NCBI GenBank assembly: GCA_965203805.1
Contig: OZ241917.1
Location: 4,640,001 to 4,704,000, forward strand
Direction: 5' to 3'
Source: Candidatus Latescibacterota bacterium
Lineage (GTDB): Bacteria; Latescibacterota; UBA2968; GCA-2709665
DNA: 64,000 nt
The notes under the pieces are model-generated. The model had not been told where the DNA came from. It saw nothing but the letters and a program-made list of their open reading frames with translations, and searched no databases. The position numbers and the translations under genes are program-made. This document shows positions 5,108-57,562 of the stretch, in pieces (the stretch's first letter is position 1; every line of letters begins with the position of its first letter).

Positions 5108-5127
5108 GAAGAACAAAGGAGAATGAT

Positions 5128-6318
5128 ATGACAGTTCGTAAGGATGAATGGAAGCCAGGTCCTGAAACGATTGAATCGCTGTCCTCGCTGATCCGGTCGA
5201 AACCCAAAGAAGTGCGGTGGACCGAAATCGGCTGGGAGACGGACCTCTGGACGGCCCGGCGCCGCGCGGCCGCGGTGAACAGACCGATGTTCATCTGGGC
5301 GATGAACGGAAACCCGCTCGGCTGCGTCTGAAACAATGGCATCGCGGGCCGTGAGTCCGTTTTCTCCCATCCCGGTATTATCCGGATCCTCAACGAGTCC
5401 TACGTTTCCGTTGCGGACAACTGCAGCTACACCCAGACACAGAAAGACGCCAAGGGCGAATTCTTTCGCCTCGTGGCGGAACAGGGCCATTACGGCGGCG
5501 TCACCGAACCCACGGCCACCAGGCAGGGCCTGTACGCGTGTACCTCGGACGGCGAGTTGCTGGGGTCCATCAACACGCGGGATGCCGCCCCCCTACTGGA
5601 ACTGCTAGAGCAGAGCCTGGAGAGGTGGCGCAAGCGCCCGGCCGGGGGCGCGTCCGACGATATTCCCGAATCCTATCCCATCGATCCCAGACTCGGATGG
5701 TCCTATCCGGACAACGGCCTGGCGCTCAAAGTCACGGTCCGGGACCTCCCTCGGAATTCCAATGGCCTCGACGCCCGGCACAACATCGACTTCGCGTGGT
5801 TTACGGAAGAGGAGATCCGGTCGCTGGTGCCCGGGAACCCCCGTCCGGGGCAGACCTGGCGCGCGCCGGGCTTTTTCACCAGGCGTCTCGCCCTGCGCCA
5901 TTTCATCGACACGGTCCGCGGTCAATCGCCGGGTTGGCGGGAAGAAAACCTGAAGGAAGGAGAGATTCGCCTGACCGTCGAGGCCGTCGAAGCCGACCAC
6001 GTACGGTTCCGAATGGATGGATGCATCGAGCTCGAAGCCGAACCCACGTATGAAACCAATCCCCACAGCAAGCTTACGGTGGACAAGCCACGGGGCCTGA
6101 AACTGGACCTGTTCGGCCGCATCGGGTTCGAGCCGCGCCAGCGGCGCGTCAGCGCCTTCGACGCCGTCGCGACGGGCGACCGCTGGGGCTGTACCACGTA
6201 CAACGTGCGCTTCGACGATCCCGGCCCGGCGCCCATCGGTTTCGCGTTCGAACTCGCGTCGGACGACCCCATCGAACGCACCCCTCCCGCCTCCATCGGA
6301 CGGAATTACTTCGCCTGA
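5128..6318 (+). CDS. Putative thioredoxin-like selenoprotein (396 aa, C66-x-U68) read through UGA 5329-5331
   Basis: RBS AAGGAGA precedes ATG 5128. ORFs 5041-5331 and 5473-6318 are in the same frame, with no stop between them except the TGA. The readthrough gives GNPLGCV-U-NNGIAGRESVFSHPGIIRILNESYVSVAD. A SECIS-like hairpin follows. Confidence 0.75.
5344..5360 (+). promoter_or_regulatory. Putative bacterial SECIS element
   Basis: Stem GCGGGC/GTCCGT (4 Watson-Crick and 2 G-U pairs) with loop CGTGA (G at loop position 2). The loop starts 18 nt after the UGA. Confidence 0.6.
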
Positions 6319-23408: not shown

Positions 23409-23704
23409 TTCTCTTCGCTCCCTGAAAGTGAATAGAGGCTTGCGACGCATACCCCAACAGCGCCGGTCGTGACCCGTCACGTCTTCCGCCGGCCGATATC
23501 CGGTTCGGCTAATATAAAGCCTGACCCTATAATATCAAGGCCGGCTTGAGACGGCACGGGCAGATGACGTGCGTGATCGCCAGATTCAGGGAACTCCCGG
23601 CCCGGCGCGGTCGTCTATATTGAACCAGTCGAGGCCGGGCCCGCCCAATCGTTGGGCAACCTCCCGCCCGGTCCGTTCTCATACCGTTTCAAAGGAGTTC
23701 GTCC

Positions 23705-24136
23705 ATGCGAATCCGAAGCACGCTTTCCCTGGCAGCCCTTTCCCTTCTGCTGATCGCCGGACCCGGTTTCGCGGGTGCAGTCGAGGTGCCGGGCGAAGGC
23801 GATCCGGCCCTTTACGTCGTGAAAGTACACGCCGACTGGTGCGGGTCATGTACGGCGCTGACTCCGGTCCTGGAGGAGGTCCGGGCGTCTCTTGCGGACA
23901 AGCCCGTCCTCTTTCTCGAACTCGACGTGACCGACGCGAAACGCACCGCCCAGTCCCGATTGCTGGCCGCCGCCCTCGGGATCGAGGAGCCGTTCAAGGC
24001 CAACAACAAGACAGGCCTCGTAATGCTCATCGATCCTGCCAAAAAGGCCGTCGTGGAAACCCTCACGCGCAAGAATCCCGCGGAGGAGATGACCGGAAAG
24101 ATCAAGGCGCACATCGCCATGGACGGGAAATCCTGA
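23705..24136 (+). CDS. Exported thioredoxin-like protein
   Basis: Signal-peptide-like N-terminus and HADWCGSC. Confidence 0.8.
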   Translation: MRIRSTLSLAALSLLLIAGPGFAGAVEVPGEGDPALYVVKVHADWCGSCTALTPVLEEVRASLADKPVLFLELDVTDAKRTAQSRLLAAALGIEEPFKANNKTGLVMLIDPAKKAVVETLTRKNPAEEMTGKIKAHIAMDGKS

Positions 24137-24196
24137 GCATGGATGGCTGAGCTGCGCGCGGATATGCGCGCGTCCCATCAGGGAGGGGGAGTCCGG

Positions 24197-25264
24197 ATGA
24201 TCATTGAGAAAATCACGGCCACAAGCGTCAGTATCCCCTACGCCGCACCGGTCGGACCGTACGTCGGTCGCGGCGCCGGCGGGGGCACGCTGGGCGGAAC
24301 CGGTCTCATTGTCAGGATCGAGTCGGATTCCGGGCTGGTGGGATGGGGTGAAGGCACCGGCGGTTTTGAGGCGGACCCGAACGCGATCCTGGCGGGCAGC
24401 CACGTTTCTGACATCGAAAAAGCGATCGGACGCATGGAAAATGCGGGCATCCCGAGGGGTCCGATGTCCGGCGTCGAAATGGCGCTCTGGGACCTCCTGG
24501 GCAAGCACGCCGGGCTGCCGGTATGCCGCCTGATGGGCGGTATTGTGCGCACCGAAGTCGACTTCACCGCATGCATGGGCCTGAAGGAACCCGAACAGTC
24601 CGCCGCCACGGCCCGGGAGTATATCGACCGCTGGGGGTTTCGTTTCATCAAGACGAAAGCCGGCAACGATCCAGCGCAGGACCTGGCCATTGCCGAAGCC
24701 GCCTGCAGGGAGATCGGCGACGAAGCCGTATTCCGGCCGGATGCGAACGGCGGCTACCCGCCGGAAGAAACGCTGGATATCATGAAGAAGATGGCGGACC
24801 TGGGCGTCGCGCACTTCGAAGACCCGTGCCACACCGAGCATGTGGAAACGCTCGCGCGGGTGCGCAGCGAGATCGGCACGCACATCCTCGTCAACGGAGG
24901 TGTGGCCCTGCCCGGAAGCATCCGGCCCTTCCTGGAGGGTGACGCCGCCGACTCTCTGATGCCGGATACCCCGGCCGCCGGCGCGATGCTTCGCGTCAGG
25001 AAGATCGCTGACGCGGCCGAGCCGTGGAACGTCCCCTGTTTGATGCACTGCTCGCACGACCTGGGCCTCAAGACCGCCGCGATCACCCATATCGCCGCCG
25101 CAACGCCCAACTTCTCGGGGCCCAATGACACCTGCTACCACGGGTTGGTGGACGACGTTCTGGCCGAACCCTTCGCGTTCGAAAACGGGCAGCTGAAGGT
25201 CCCTCTCGGCCCGGGCCTTGGCGTGGAAGTCGACGAATCCAAGGTTGAGAGGTACCGGGTCTGA
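24197..25264 (+). CDS. Mandelate racemase/muconate lactonizing enzyme family protein
   Basis: Motifs G.VGWGE, EMALWDL.GK, KTK, DANGG, EDP and GPGLGVEVD. Confidence 0.9.
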   Translation: MIIEKITATSVSIPYAAPVGPYVGRGAGGGTLGGTGLIVRIESDSGLVGWGEGTGGFEADPNAILAGSHVSDIEKAIGRMENAGIPRGPMSGVEMALWDLLGKHAGLPVCRLMGGIVRTEVDFTACMGLKEPEQSAATAREYIDRWGFRFIKTKAGNDPAQDLAIAEAACREIGDEAVFRPDANGGYPPEETLDIMKKMADLGVAHFEDPCHTEHVETLARVRSEIGTHILVNGGVALPGSIRPFLEGDAADSLMPDTPAAGAMLRVRKIADAAEPWNVPCLMHCSHDLGLKTAAITHIAAATPNFSGPNDTCYHGLVDDVLAEPFAFENGQLKVPLGPGLGVEVDESKVERYRV

Positions 25265-33423: not shown

Positions 33424-34005
33424 TCATACTCCGCCCGGCTGCGCGTTCAGTAGCCGGATTCGCTTTACCATTTCTTCGATGCCGGGCGAATATCCGTCCT
33501 CGGTCGAAACATGGATCGCGGGCACGTCGAAATCGGGCGGCGTATAATCCCCCGAAGGCGCGATTTCGCCGGTCCTCCTGTAGATTTCGACGCGTCTGTC
33601 GCCATGGTAGAACTCCCGGTCCGGATCGTCCAGGCCTCGCTGCAAGTGGCGCCTGGCCGCCACCATCCCGTCGATGGCGCAGACGACAAAGACCGGCGTA
33701 CACAATTCGAGGATCCGGGGGACTCTCGGCTCCCAGATCCTGTGCTGAAACGCCGCCTCGATGATGACGGAGACCTTCGCGACGAGGTACCGGTTCACGA
33801 TATCGAAGAAGAGATCGGTGACCAACCGGTTGACGTCCGGCGGCAGCCGGTCGTGTTTCACGCCATAGGTGTTGACGTAGCCTTCCTTGATCCCGTCGCG
33901 GCTGACGACCGGCATCCGGAGTCGGTCGGCAAGTTTCCCGGATAACGTGGTTTTTCCCGACCCCGGCCGGCCCGTAACGATAATGCAGATGGGTTTGCGG
34001 CTCAT
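33424..34005 (-). CDS. P-loop kinase (AAA_33-like)
   Basis: Motifs GRPGSGKTT, VSRD.IKE and SVIIEA. Confidence 0.85.
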   Translation of the reverse strand: MSRKPICIIVTGRPGSGKTTLSGKLADRLRMPVVSRDGIKEGYVNTYGVKHDRLPPDVNRLVTDLFFDIVNRYLVAKVSVIIEAAFQHRIWEPRVPRILELCTPVFVVCAIDGMVAARRHLQRGLDDPDREFYHGDRRVEIYRRTGEIAPSGDYTPPDFDVPAIHVSTEDGYSPGIEEMVKRIRLLNAQPGGV

Positions 34006-34041
34006 ATATCCGTTGCTCGAAATGGGTGGGGAAAGCAGTGA

Positions 34042-35724
34042 TCAGTCCACCGGCAGTTCCACGCTCCTCCCGCTCTCCAGGTCCATTGTCACCGCGCGGA
34101 ATTGAAAGCCGTATCGTTCCACTCTCTCCCCCCGGGTGTCATCACCCGTATCCGGCGCCAGCACCGTCGCGCCCTTCAGGTCCGCGTCCGCACGTACTTC
34201 GTACGCGCCGTTTTCCCGAAGTCCGAACCGCACCGTACGCCGCGCGCGTTCCCACGCGTCGATCCGCTCCGCCGTCCACCACGGCATGCCCTTGTCCCTG
34301 GTATAGCCGACGATTTCCCTGAGCCCGCCGCGAACGGCCGGTTCCCAGACGTGCGCGGGGTGAAAGAGGAAATGGGCGATGCCGTGGTGCCGAAACGCCC
34401 GGTCGGCGAAACAATGCGCCAGGCGGGTGGAACACCGCTTGTGAATGTCCTGCACGGTCAGGTTCACCTCCAGCACGTCGATCGGCGGGCCGCCCGGTGA
34501 CTCGTCTTCAATCGGAAACCAGGGGTGGCATCCCCCGAAGGGAAACCCGTTGGTATAGGGCGTGTTCGGCCCCCGGCTCTGCTCCAGGGTGATGCCCGCG
34601 CGTTCGCACCAGCGGAAGAACTCCAGCCGGCCCTGCCAGCGGAGCGTGTGGTTCTTGTTGGTCGTGACCGGCCGCCCCGACGTTTCGGTGACCGTTTTCA
34701 GTTGTCCCGCCAGCTCTTCGTAACCCCACTTCAGGTGGGCGGTCTCCGGCTTCTGATCGTCCGACGCCGTCTGCCAGGTCTGCGCGTCGTAGTGCAGGGC
34801 CACCTCGGAACCGCAGTCGTGGATCGCGCGGTAGAATTCCGGCTGATAGTGCCCGGCCATGATGCACCACGTCGTCCGAATGTCAACCTCCCGGGTAAGC
34901 CGCAATAGCGACCAGCCCAGCGCTTCGTCACCGCCGTCGGAGTCGTGGGACATGTGCGCGATCGCGGGCAGGTTGTCCGGCCAGTACCACAGGACGGGCA
35001 GGGATACGCCGATCTCCCGGCAGGCGTAGAGGATGGCCTTGATGATGAGTTCCCGGAACTCGTCCGCGATCGGCTCGAGGAAGACGAGGTTTTCCTCCTC
35101 TCCCGGTACCGGCGACCGGTCGCGGTCCAGATCCAGCGCGAGCCCCTGGATCACGTCGATCCGCGTGGGACCGATCGCGGGGGGTATCGCGTGCCCCTGC
35201 TGGATATGCACAACCGTGCGGACGACGTCGGGACCCACGGCGATCGCGATGCCATTGCCGGGCCGATGCTCCACCACCCCGTCGCTGGCGCCAATCACCC
35301 TCGCCAGCGCCGTCCCATCCACGGCTTTGATCCGGCGCCCGCCGAAACAGTGAAGGCTGCTGGCGAACCCCGCCGTTACCGGATGGTCCTTCTGCGCGAT
35401 CTGCACGTATCCGTCCGCCATGTCTCCCCGGTCCGCCGCGCCGAACACGCTGTCCAGCCCCGACATGCCTCCCAGCCCGATCAGCGCGCCGCCGGATTCC
35501 ACGAAGTTCGCGAGCAGCGTCCGCTCCGCGGCCGACAGCGGCATATGCCAGGGAAGCAGTACCACGCGATATCCATCCACAGCGGACAGGGGACGTTCGA
35601 TCTCGTCATAGGGTATGCCCGCGTGTGCGAGAATCTCCCGGATGTAATACCCGCCGTAGTAATGCGAAGCGTCCGGCGCCGTCTGTCCATCCGGATCGGT
35701 CACCACGCACAACGGAAGGTTCAT
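34042..35724 (-). CDS. Hypothetical protein with a GATase-like N-terminal region and a polysaccharide-deacetylase-like C-terminal region
   Basis: VVLLP...L.NFVESGG.LI in the N-terminal part; SHDSD, EVALHY and FLFHP in the C-terminal part. Confidence 0.65.
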   Translation of the reverse strand: MNLPLCVVTDPDGQTAPDASHYYGGYYIREILAHAGIPYDEIERPLSAVDGYRVVLLPWHMPLSAAERTLLANFVESGGALIGLGGMSGLDSVFGAADRGDMADGYVQIAQKDHPVTAGFASSLHCFGGRRIKAVDGTALARVIGASDGVVEHRPGNGIAIAVGPDVVRTVVHIQQGHAIPPAIGPTRIDVIQGLALDLDRDRSPVPGEEENLVFLEPIADEFRELIIKAILYACREIGVSLPVLWYWPDNLPAIAHMSHDSDGGDEALGWSLLRLTREVDIRTTWCIMAGHYQPEFYRAIHDCGSEVALHYDAQTWQTASDDQKPETAHLKWGYEELAGQLKTVTETSGRPVTTNKNHTLRWQGRLEFFRWCERAGITLEQSRGPNTPYTNGFPFGGCHPWFPIEDESPGGPPIDVLEVNLTVQDIHKRCSTRLAHCFADRAFRHHGIAHFLFHPAHVWEPAVRGGLREIVGYTRDKGMPWWTAERIDAWERARRTVRFGLRENGAYEVRADADLKGATVLAPDTGDDTRGERVERYGFQFRAVTMDLESGRSVELPVD

Positions 35725-52248: not shown

Positions 52249-54333
52249 ATGGCCCAGGCGCGTTCAACGGATCACCGGGACCGTTCGGAAGACCCCATGA
52301 CCGCCTGCCTGCCGCGCCTGTCTGCAGCGCAGGGCACTGCGCAGGCAGGCACGCACGCGCAGGCAGGCAGGGCTTGGCGCAGGCAGGCGCGGGGCGGAAT
52401 CACCGCGCGGTCCGTGGTTCTGGGCCTGTTGACGGCGGCCGCGTCGGCCTATTACGGGATTGCCGGGTCGATGGTGCTGCACGTGGGGTCGCTGGTCAAG
52501 TCGAACTTTCCGGTTTCGCTGATCCTGGTATTTACAATCTGGGTGATCATCAATATGGTGATCGCCCGGGTTGCGCCCCGCAGCGTGCTTTCCCGCACGG
52601 AGATGATGGTCATCTTCGCCATGACGTGGATCGCGGGGATGATGCCCGGGGTGGGGTGGACGGGGTATATGACGGGGGCGCTTCCCGCGCCGCACTTCTT
52701 CGCGACCCCTGAGAATCGCTGGGCGGAACTGTTCCTCGACGAGTTGCCGCACTGGGCGTTCCCCGAACCGGTCCCGGAAATTGTGGACCGGTTCTATTTC
52801 GGGTTGCGCAAGGGGGAGAGCGTCCCGTGGTCCGGGTGGCTCGCGCCGGTGGGCTGGTGGCTGGCCGGCAGCCTCGCCATGGTTGGCGTGGCTTTTTTCG
52901 TTACGACGATCTTTCATCGCCAGTGGACCGACGCCGAGCGGTTGACCTATCCGCTGGTCAGTTTTCCCGCGGACCTGACCGAAGGGATCGGGCGCGGTCG
53001 CGCCATTCCAACCCTCTTCCGGTCTCCGGTGTTCTGGCTTGGCTTTTCCTGGACGGCCGGGATCATTTGCTGGAATATCATCACGTTCTGGTATCCGCAG
53101 GTGCCGCGCGTCACGCTGTTCGATTCGGTGAATACCAAGTGGATGGTGGTGGCGCAGAATTTCCCCCGGGTCTATTACCGGATTCTGCCGCTCGTGATCG
53201 GTCTGGGTTATCTGTGCCGCCTGGATCTGCTGTTCAGTTTCTGGTTCATGGGCCTGCTGGCGGTTGTGAAAGTGGGCGTGATGAACCGGACCGGGTTCAC
53301 GGTGGGCCTGGCGGGGCAGCCCTCCACGGGTAATGAAATCGTCAATCTGGAAAGCCATGGCGCAATGACGGTCCTGGTGGTGTGGTCGCTGTGGATGGCC
53401 AGGCGTCACCTTGCGTACGTCGGGAAGAAGGCCTGGGAAGGGGGCGGCGAGGGAGAGGGTCCGGTTTCCTACAGGACCGCGGTCGCGGGGCTCCTGATCT
53501 GCGCGAGCTTTGTCTGCGGCTTCTTCATGGCCGTGGGCCTCTCGTTCAGCCTCGCCCTGGGACAGATGACATTGATGTTCATCGCGTATTTCACGGTGGC
53601 GAAATACATGGCGGCCACGGGGTTCGGGTATCTCGTGCCCGTGGGCGGCAAGGGCGGATGGTGGCTGAAGTCCATCACCGGCACGGCGACGATGGATACC
53701 CAAAACCTGGTCGGGTTGGGGCTTCTGAACAGCAGCGTCTTTTTCGGAGGGGGAAGGCTGCAGACGATTCAGATGCTGCCGCACCACCTGAAGGCGATGG
53801 ACCATCTGAAGGCCCGCCGGGGATGGATTGGCGGGACGGTTTTTGTGGGATTCGTCGTCAGTTTCCTGGTTTGCGTGGGCTTCATCGTCTATTACTGCTA
53901 TACCGAGTCCGCGCTGTTTCTGCGGTCGTGGACGCTGTGGGAGGGGCCGCACGGCATATTCAATGGTCTGGCAACGTCCATCGGCGAAACGGACAGGACC
54001 GTATTCGACCCACAGAAGCTGGGGGTCTGGCTGTTCGGCGCGGCCGAGGCGGGCCTGCTCGCGCTGCTGCGGACGTGGTTCCCATGGTGGCCGCTGCACC
54101 CGCTGGGCCTGGCGTTCCAGTATACGACCGGCCCCAGGTACTATGTGCTGAGCATCATGCTCGTGTGGGCGGCCAAGTTGCTGATCGTGCATTACGGCGG
54201 GCCCCGGCTGTATGAGAAGGCCAAGCCGTTTTTCTACGGGACGGTGATCGGATATTGCGCTGGCATCGGCATCGCACAGGTCGTCGACCTGATCTGGTTT
54301 CCCGGTCATGGGCACGGGTTTCATAATTATTGA
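52249..54333 (+). CDS. Polytopic membrane protein (DUF6785/DUF6784-like, putative transporter)
   Basis: Many TM segments; RQW...ERL.YPL, WWPLHPLG and RLYEKAKPFF.G. Confidence 0.8.
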   Translation: MAQARSTDHRDRSEDPMTACLPRLSAAQGTAQAGTHAQAGRAWRRQARGGITARSVVLGLLTAAASAYYGIAGSMVLHVGSLVKSNFPVSLILVFTIWVIINMVIARVAPRSVLSRTEMMVIFAMTWIAGMMPGVGWTGYMTGALPAPHFFATPENRWAELFLDELPHWAFPEPVPEIVDRFYFGLRKGESVPWSGWLAPVGWWLAGSLAMVGVAFFVTTIFHRQWTDAERLTYPLVSFPADLTEGIGRGRAIPTLFRSPVFWLGFSWTAGIICWNIITFWYPQVPRVTLFDSVNTKWMVVAQNFPRVYYRILPLVIGLGYLCRLDLLFSFWFMGLLAVVKVGVMNRTGFTVGLAGQPSTGNEIVNLESHGAMTVLVVWSLWMARRHLAYVGKKAWEGGGEGEGPVSYRTAVAGLLICASFVCGFFMAVGLSFSLALGQMTLMFIAYFTVAKYMAATGFGYLVPVGGKGGWWLKSITGTATMDTQNLVGLGLLNSSVFFGGGRLQTIQMLPHHLKAMDHLKARRGWIGGTVFVGFVVSFLVCVGFIVYYCYTESALFLRSWTLWEGPHGIFNGLATSIGETDRTVFDPQKLGVWLFGAAEAGLLALLRTWFPWWPLHPLGLAFQYTTGPRYYVLSIMLVWAAKLLIVHYGGPRLYEKAKPFFYGTVIGYCAGIGIAQVVDLIWFPGHGHGFHNY
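52304..52387. repeat. 84-bp nested palindromic insert in frame within the CDS
   Basis: CCTGCCTGC...GCAGGCAGG termini. Removing it gives M-T-A-R-G-G-I-T. Confidence 0.7.
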
Positions 54334-56400: not shown

Positions 56401-57562
56401 TAGTACTTAATTGGTTAAATTAGAGTATTTTTCTTCAAGGGCTTTGGGTCGGACTTTTGTGGATTTCCACTCGAAGGGATGTGCGTTCTCGTTGTAGGCG
56501 TCAATGAAGTGATTGATGGCGGTGCGTAAGTCTCGAATCGAGGTGAAGGAGCCGCCTTTGAGCGCGCTTCTCCACAGGATGCTGAACCAGATTTCGATCT
56601 GGTTGAGCCAGGATGCGTGGGTGGGGGTGTAGTAGAAGTGGACATTGGGATGGCGTGGCAGCCAGCGGTCGTTCTTGGGCTTGTGGGTGTTCAGGTTGTC
56701 GAGGATGATGTGGAGTTCCTGATCGGGGTATTCGGCGACAAGTTCGTTCATAAAGCTCAGAAACTGGCGTCGTTTGCGCCTTTTGTAATGCCCGGCCTTG
56801 ACGAGGCCGGTGGCGACGTTCAATGCAGCGAATAAGGTGGTGGTGCCGTTTCTCTTGTATTCGTGGTTAAAGCCGGTCACGGCCTTGCCGTTGGGCAGCT
56901 TGAGCCATCCCTGTACCCTTTCCAACGCCTGGATCGCGGGCTTTTCATCGACGCACAAGACAATCGCATTTTTGGGAGGTTCCAGATACAACCCCACGAT
57001 GGCTGCGGCCTTGGTGGCAAATTCCGGATCGGTGCTGATACACCAGCTGCGCCTTCTGGCCAGCGAAATGCCGTGGTTGCGCAAGACCTGCCAGACATAG
57101 TGGACAGAAATTCCCAGCTTGTCGGCCAACAACGGACCGGTCCAGTTTCCATAGCCCTTGGGCGGGGCATCGTCCAAGGCCTCCAAAATGCGCTTTTCGC
57201 TTGACTGGTCGTACTTGGCAGGCTTGCCCGATCTCGCCTTGTCCTGCAACCCGGAAAGACCCGACTCGTGAAAGCGCCGGCGCCACTTGCACACCGTGGC
57301 CTCGCGCGTTCCCAGATCCCTGGCGATGTCCCGGTTCGCATCGCCCTGGGACGCTGAAAGAACAATCCGGGCGCGCAGCACATAACGGTGTTGCGTCTTG
57401 CCTGAACGTGTCCAACTCAACAGCGTCTCTTTTTCCTCGTCACGCAACGTGATCAACACGGCGGGGCGGCTCATAGGCGGTCTCCTCTCCACAGTTGAAC
57501 TGAGATCGATTCCCTATGAGCACAAGATATATTATTTCGCTTTTTTTGTCAAGTAAGTACTA
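56401..57562 (-). mobile_element. IS630-family insertion sequence
   Basis: Both ends read TAGTACTTA.TTG in inverted orientation, and both sit in CTAG with a duplicated TA (56401-2, 57561-2). An inward TTGACA-17-TATCTT promoter starts in the right end. Confidence 0.92.
56407..57474 (-). CDS. IS630 family transposase
   Basis: N-terminal HTH and DDE motifs VDEK, LDN and WLNQIE.WF. The stop codon lies inside the terminal repeat. Confidence 0.95.
   Translation of the reverse strand: MSRPAVLITLRDEEKETLLSWTRSGKTQHRYVLRARIVLSASQGDANRDIARDLGTREATVCKWRRRFHESGLSGLQDKARSGKPAKYDQSSEKRILEALDDAPPKGYGNWTGPLLADKLGISVHYVWQVLRNHGISLARRRSWCISTDPEFATKAAAIVGLYLEPPKNAIVLCVDEKPAIQALERVQGWLKLPNGKAVTGFNHEYKRNGTTTLFAALNVATGLVKAGHYKRRKRRQFLSFMNELVAEYPDQELHIILDNLNTHKPKNDRWLPRHPNVHFYYTPTHASWLNQIEIWFSILWRSALKGGSFTSIRDLRTAINHFIDAYNENAHPFEWKSTKVRPKALEEKYSNLTN

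Follow-up and report, generated by a model that had tools for sequence, protein, structure and literature searches.

The region spanning positions 5128-6318 on the forward strand of the window, the 64,000-nucleotide stretch of DNA analysed here, very probably constitutes one gene for a 396-residue selenoprotein in which the in-frame UGA at codon 68 is decoded as selenocysteine (Sec), a reading to which a probability of about 0.9 is assigned. This interpretation, put forward in an earlier note on the same DNA, is supported by the occurrence of TGA at this codon in all 77 informative related loci, by cysteine at the same position in 7 of 18 read-through proteins, by a covarying hairpin downstream of the codon and by a predicted thioredoxin fold. 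Taking these comparisons together, Sec insertion at UGA-68 itself is the most likely fate of the codon.

The reading frame opens at ATG 5128, which is preceded, at a distance of 6 nt, by a Shine-Dalgarno-like AAGGAG (5116-5121, forward strand), and runs to the TGA at 5329-5331, the proposed Sec codon. Beyond it, 47 open codons lead to GTG 5473, the start of a 281-aa called ORF (5473-6318) which closes with a terminal TGA at 6316-6318; no Shine-Dalgarno sequence was seen before this GTG in the window sequence. When codon 68 is read through, a single CDS of 396 codons plus the terminal TGA results, and tblastn matches in related loci likewise cross codon 68 in one frame. The translation, in which the peptide VFSHPGIIRILNESYVSV was confirmed, has the local sequence ...NPLG-C66-V-U68-NNGIAGRESVFSHPGIIRILNESYVSV..., with Cys66 encoded by TGC at 5323-5325. 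The positions given in the earlier note for the start codon, the Cys codon, the TGA and the 47 open codons were all verified in the sequence, as were its assignment of the ribosome binding site to ATG 5128 and its description of a 6-bp stem with a 5-nt, G-containing loop 18 nt after the UGA. On the 3' side, a GC-rich 12-bp inverted repeat without a T-run (6351-6362/6377-6388, forward strand, read from the sequence) lies 33 nt past the stop codon of the gene and is a possible transcript end; a consensus terminator scan left it uncalled, owing to the missing T-run.

A scan of representative genomes, with a 12-sequence alignment as the query, returned 79 loci, of which two (L059 and L077) end at a contig edge without the codon-68 region, leaving 77 that are informative. 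These loci carry at least seven phylum labels, among them Latescibacterota, Gemmatimonadota, Poribacteria, Chloroflexota, Planctomycetota, Armatimonadota and Verrucomicrobiota (an Akkermansiaceae MAG), along with one Bacillota MAG. At the codon corresponding to position 68 every informative locus has TGA, and never TAA or TAG, and a cysteine stands two residues before it in all 77, forming the motif GC[V/T]-U-NNG; such an arrangement exceeds what chance would give. When the window is counted together with the 77 loci, Cys66 is found in all 78 sequences, residue 67 is divided equally between V (39) and T (39), NNG directly follows the TGA in 77, and the position +3 after Sec is glycine throughout (78/78). 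The Cys66 codon is TGC in 46 and TGT in 32 of these sequences, a synonymous variation which indicates that the part upstream of the TGA is translated, and protein conservation flanks the TGA on either side within one frame.

Selenoprotein genes are systematically mis-annotated, the UGA being read as a stop, and the protein databases have revealed the same pattern for this family. A word-indexed protein search found 122 relatives, while an exhaustive HMMER scan yielded at least 1,567 representative clusters (50% identity) at E <= 1e-3 and 146 at E <= 1e-30. Nearly all of the database proteins start just past codon 68, typically with MAGR..., VAGR... or MTGR...; the match begins within the first five residues at query positions 70-109 in 156 of the 263 proteins retrieved, and codon 68 is covered by only 18 of them. 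A search for shorter proteins recovered 32 N-terminal pieces, 11 of which are exactly 67 aa long, and the six 67-aa pieces examined all end in ...NPLGC[V/T]. These pieces, together with the proteins that start past codon 68, indicate that public gene calls split the gene at the TGA. It is stored as a 67-aa piece and a piece of approximately 281-325 aa, in agreement with the earlier note, where annotation as two proteins had been anticipated. With regard to the 18 proteins that do cover position 68, cysteine is present in seven, four of them with a CxC motif (P0034, P0067, P0150 and P0245) and three with a single Cys at the Sec position (P0090, P0157 and P0167), tryptophan is present in one (P0061), and ten have neither Cys nor Sec nor Trp. 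The last group indicates that the module can exist without redox chemistry. The expectation that homologues would show TGA or Cys at position 68, with conservation on both flanks, has therefore been borne out, and at the level of sequence comparison a codon that is only ever TGA, flanks that are conserved and the pairing of Sec with Cys together make up the pattern by which selenoprotein families are ordinarily recognised.

The separation of the 67-aa and 281-325-aa pieces by gene callers and public databases is what would be seen if the UGA were a true stop, in which case the region would be a pseudogene disabled by a nonsense mutation, a pair of independent small genes, or the product of a sequencing error. 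This alternative is extremely improbable, considering that the same TGA recurs in 77 of 77 informative loci over several phyla, that protein conservation extends to both sides in one frame while the flanking Cys codon varies synonymously, that GTG 5473 is without a Shine-Dalgarno sequence, and that read-through forms with Cys exist. It has also been considered that the UGA might be read as a standard amino acid, without Sec, either because the code has been reassigned (to Trp or Gly) or by leaky near-cognate read-through. The tryptophan at position 68 of the JGI protein P0061, which is represented by its protein sequence alone and may reflect a table-4 translation of TGA, would fit such a reading. 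Nonetheless, the gene in the window terminates with TGA, and the natural stops of the homologous genes are TGA in 35, TAG in 19 and TAA in 19 of the 73 complete ones (four being open at the contig end), which indicates that TGA also serves as a stop in the carrier organisms. These lineages are diverse, the in-frame codon is limited to one active-site position next to a Cys and pairs with Cys in homologues, and a covarying hairpin follows the UGA at SECIS distance, so that a standard amino acid at this position is most improbable. The comparative data contradict both the pseudogene or two-gene reading and the idea that the UGA encodes a residue other than Sec.

The bSECIS-like hairpin occupies positions 5344-5360 on the forward strand, with a stem formed by 5344-5349 and 5355-5360 and a CGUGA loop at 5350-5354. 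It starts 12 nt downstream of the UGA, and its loop starts 18 nt after that codon. When the U of the UGA is numbered 1, the hairpin extends over positions 16-32, with the stem at 16-21/27-32, a G at 23 and a U at 24. Taken alone, the hairpin of the window has an unremarkable stability (z = -0.27 over 81 nt and z = -0.33 over 40 nt), and in view of these scores its support comes from the comparison between loci rather than from folding energy. In a gap-free alignment of 75 distinct sequences, comprising 57 nt from the UGA onward, RNAalifold picks the same six pairs, joining columns 16-21 with 27-32. Standard pairs are found in 82.9% of the cells of the stem and an optional 15-33 pair, as opposed to 31-47% in controls with the 3' arm displaced by 1-3 columns. 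Changes on both sides occur in seven of seven pairs (71 cells), and the covariation score is reached by none of 500 shuffles. At pair 18-30, for example, 36 rows have G-C and 23 have C-G, and pairing extends to 329 of 348 cells among the 58 rows of the group to which the window belongs. The structure that the earlier note had described as SECIS-like is consequently conserved, with compensatory changes, among the 75 sequences. G23 is present in all 75 rows and U24 in 56; because G23 falls at the centre of an Arg codon that hardly varies, its invariance does not constitute independent evidence. The 40-nt minimum-energy fold of the window, in which a longer hairpin takes in the UGA, has been discarded, since it displays no covariation and 270 of 500 shuffles reach its score. 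No SECIS family of Rfam was matched, whether the entire window was scanned at the gathering threshold or the surroundings of the UGA at E <= 10.

A subgroup of 17 rows from Armatimonadota and Planctomycetota, characterized by Trp-79 (L051, L054-L058, L061, L062, L065-L067, L069, L073-L076 and L078), lends weak support to the in-register hairpin, which pairs 69.6% of its cells. With a hairpin moved about 4 nt downstream, 80.7% of the cells in this subgroup are paired, with little covariation. This shifted form would comprise columns 20-26/30-36 with a 3-nt loop, and it may be of more than one type within the subgroup.

In bSECIS elements of the fdhF type, a bulged U17 is required for SelB binding. 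No such bulge is predicted in the hairpin of the window's family, where the predicted stem runs without interruption and position 17, a C in 58 of 75 rows, is paired. The Escherichia coli fdhF element, according to the available text of PMC8659212, is a 17-nt stem-loop at positions 15-31, located 11 nt from the UGA and bearing G23 and U24 in its loop. The two elements are thus alike in their register, in the placement of the stem-loop 11-12 nt after the UGA and in the G23/U24 of the apical loop, whereas lower-stem pairing that includes the UGA is without covariation support here. By analogy with E. coli fdhF, the hairpin 12 nt downstream would bring SelB with its Sec-tRNASec cargo to the ribosome, and UGA-68 would thereby be recoded to Sec.

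An AlphaFold2 run with a 57-row alignment modelled the full read-through protein with a pLDDT of 94.1 and a pTM of 0.92. In the model, a thioredoxin-like domain covers approximately residues 36-168 (5233-5631, forward strand) and includes a strand at 54-59, the C-x-U loop at 66-68 and a helix at 69-76. Sec68 is placed by the model at the N-terminus of helix 1, which in thioredoxins is the place of the attacking cysteine. The predicted structure presents the beta-alpha-beta-alpha-beta-beta-alpha core with its active site at this helix end, and the motif is C-x-U rather than CxxC, CxxU or UxxC, the canonical second-Cys position (+3) being occupied by Gly. Foldseek agrees with this assignment, matching the domain to 3f9u (E 1.5e-4, target TM 0.66), 7tkv (Thioredox_DsbH domain), 3ira and 1sen, and the thioredoxin fold which the earlier note had suggested from a short segment after the UGA is accordingly present in the predicted structure. 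The likeness to domains of the Thioredoxin_7/Thioredox_DsbH type (3f9u, 7tkv and 3ira, together with ERp18/19, 1sen) concerns the fold, with a probability of 1.00 and a target TM of 0.53-0.66 over 139-153 columns. Sequence identity, on the other hand, is 13-17%, C-x-U replaces CxxC, and those structures do not have the fused beta-rich domain. Thioredoxin_7 gave weak Pfam matches in 4 of 57 members, the best (E 0.02) being below threshold, and no membership threshold of Pfam or NCBIfam is reached by the read-through protein or by the 57 family members.

Sec68 and Cys66 would form a selenenylsulfide (C-x-U) redox centre on this thioredoxin scaffold. Given the modelled location of Sec68 at the N-terminus of helix 1 and of Cys66 two residues upstream, the activity is most likely that of a thiol/selenol-based oxidoreductase, an assignment less certain than the encoding of Sec.

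The remainder of the protein includes a C-terminal beta-rich domain at approximately residues 198-396 (5719-6315, forward strand), delineated from the predicted models, which when modelled alone reaches a pLDDT of 92.0 and contains long strands. The large C-terminal domain announced in the earlier note can now be described as a beta-rich unit of about 200 residues with no match in the PDB. A Foldseek search of the PDB with the domain alone gave nothing at E <= 0.001, the best TM being <= 0.33, and a search of the PDB with the sequence profile gave nothing below E 0.15. Secretins, OmpA/Ail barrels and a haemophore were rejected as relatives of the domain on account of low probability and TM <= 0.33. 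Neighbours of the stored homologue P0003 in the ESM Atlas are solely unnamed 'hypothetical protein' clusters. Conserved motifs have been detected along the domain, namely RDLPR, NxDxxW, RFHLxDxVRG, GxRWG and GPAPIGF, and R352 and R361 are among its conserved residues. In the model the domain appears to be packed in a rigid arrangement against the thioredoxin domain (pTM 0.92), and it would probably provide a substrate or ligand site and hence specificity.

Paralogues without Sec have been found in which the two-domain module is joined to other proteins. It follows Ser/Thr kinase domains in P0150, P0151, P0165 and P0171 and a FecR domain in an anti-sigma-like protein (P0227), precedes a PQQ_2 propeller in P0135 and occurs with EF-hands in P0223; among the kinase- and FecR-fused forms, CxC is kept only in P0150. 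This suggests that the module has found a second use as a sensor domain, presumably extracytoplasmic. A signal-peptide-like N-terminus, by a crude hydrophobic-stretch test, has been detected in 28 of the 57 members, mainly in Planctomycetota and Armatimonadota, in some Poribacteria, and in none of the window's clade or Chloroflexota.

The possibility must be weighed that the protein is a genuine selenoprotein which acts as a binding or sensing module (for a metal, a chalcogen or an electrophile, or as a redox sensor) instead of a catalytic oxidoreductase. The fusions of Sec-less paralogues to kinases, an anti-sigma-like protein, a propeller and EF-hands would be in keeping with this role, as would the signal-peptide-like N-termini and the persistence of the polar C-terminal domain residues R205, D221, W224, R253, H258 and D261 in forms without Cys or Sec. 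Conversely, the placement of Sec at the start of helix 1, together with a vicinal Cys, represents the classic geometry of catalytic thiol/selenol oxidoreductases, and the retention of a costly Sec codon in 77 of 77 loci points to chemistry in which Sec outperforms Cys; a purely binding or sensing function is for these reasons rather unlikely, and the oxidoreductase is preferred. A broader proposal can be advanced tentatively, namely that the window protein is the founder of an undescribed, phylogenetically broad selenoenzyme family in which the new C-terminal fold and the C-x-U centre form an active site for chemistry new to selenoproteins, while the Sec-less descendants serve in extracytoplasmic sensors of the Ser/Thr kinase and anti-sigma kind. 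Under this proposal, which is possible and still doubtful, the recruitment of the descendants as sensor domains would imply that enzyme and sensors recognise the same ligand.

With respect to known families, Table 1 of a 2026 review (PMC13188914) contains 119 prokaryotic selenoprotein families or subfamilies, almost all of which carry a Pfam, NCBIfam or CDD identifier, and no row of that table combines the GC[V/T]UNNG motif with an architecture of thioredoxin plus C-terminal domain. A full-text search of the literature, covering the article texts, found no family having this motif and the two-domain architecture, nor does one appear in the available portions of PMC9312934, PMC2398784, PMC12013277, PMC13326102 and PMC1976440. 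BSepDB was built from known families, as stated in the accessible text of PMC13326102. A 'Hypothetical protein GOS_A' is described without motif or domain in the part of PMC2398784 available, and the present family may be identical to it. The family is therefore apparently undescribed as far as these sources extend, and it belongs to a well-known kind, the thioredoxin-fold selenoproteins with a bacterial SECIS.

The VPGUxxT family (NF041382/NF041383), which corresponds to 'hypothetical protein OS_HP5' in Table 1 of PMC13188914, shares with the present one the prediction of a thioredoxin-like selenoprotein of similar length (profiles of 349 and 287 positions) and a weak local similarity over approximately 60-70 residues at the active site, detected in 13 (NF041382) and 10 (NF041383) of the 57 members. 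Nevertheless, the scores of even the best members, 14-17 bits, fall short of the cut-offs of 350 and 275, the C-terminal domain is unmatched, the motif here is GC[V/T]UNNG, and the window protein itself has no match to either profile at E <= 1. A C-x-U Sec motif is also shared with Sec.1/PF13192, UshA-like, rhodanese form 3 and FTR families; these are different proteins, and none of their Pfam or NCBIfam models was matched.

The whole family is held in public databases as two unrelated hypothetical proteins. Its recognition would correct many annotations and would add one entry to the approximately 119 prokaryotic selenoprotein families listed. A clean collection of covarying bSECIS hairpins from little-studied phyla would be gained as well, and attention would be directed to a conserved 200-residue domain without a solved relative which is also used as a sensor module. 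Understanding of the mechanism of Sec decoding would be left unchanged.

Concerning the genomic surroundings, selA, selB, selC (tRNA-Sec) and selD were not found within the 64-kb window, and neither were selA, selB, selD or tRNA-Sec in the 79 related loci and their flanks. An inspection of 27 loci, with 107 neighbouring ORFs, revealed no shared partner and no sel gene, and as there is no conserved gene neighbourhood, no pathway is suggested; an SDR gene lies upstream of the selenoprotein gene in close relatives only. A scan of the window for a second TGA-joined selenoprotein gene gave only antisense frames or adjacent independent genes, so that no other selenoprotein in the window vouches for the use of Sec in the genome.

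One stretch considered in that scan, 23690-25262 on the forward strand, was rejected as a read-through gene, as it consists of two adjacent genes: a secreted thioredoxin (signal peptide, WCGSC motif) ending at TGA 24134, and an enolase-superfamily-like gene in the same frame from about 24190. An antisense ORF on the reverse strand (23846-25141) is wrongly preferred over this stretch by a simple longest-ORF picker. On the reverse strand, the ORFs 34042-35724 (560 aa, no Pfam match) and 33424-34005 (AAA_33 kinase-like) share one frame with a TGA and 12 codons between them; this TGA-joined frame (33424-35724) is probably a coincidence, since no Cys adjoins the TGA. The window also contains a DDE_3/HTH transposase gene (56407-57492, reverse strand), apparently an insertion sequence, and, 46 kb from the selenoprotein gene, a gene for a DUF6785/DUF6784 protein (52249-54333, forward strand). 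A gene of the DUF6785/DUF6784 family is likewise situated two genes upstream of the selenoprotein homologue in one related locus (L013:2715-4679), and its occurrence near the homologue there and in the window is likely to be coincidental.
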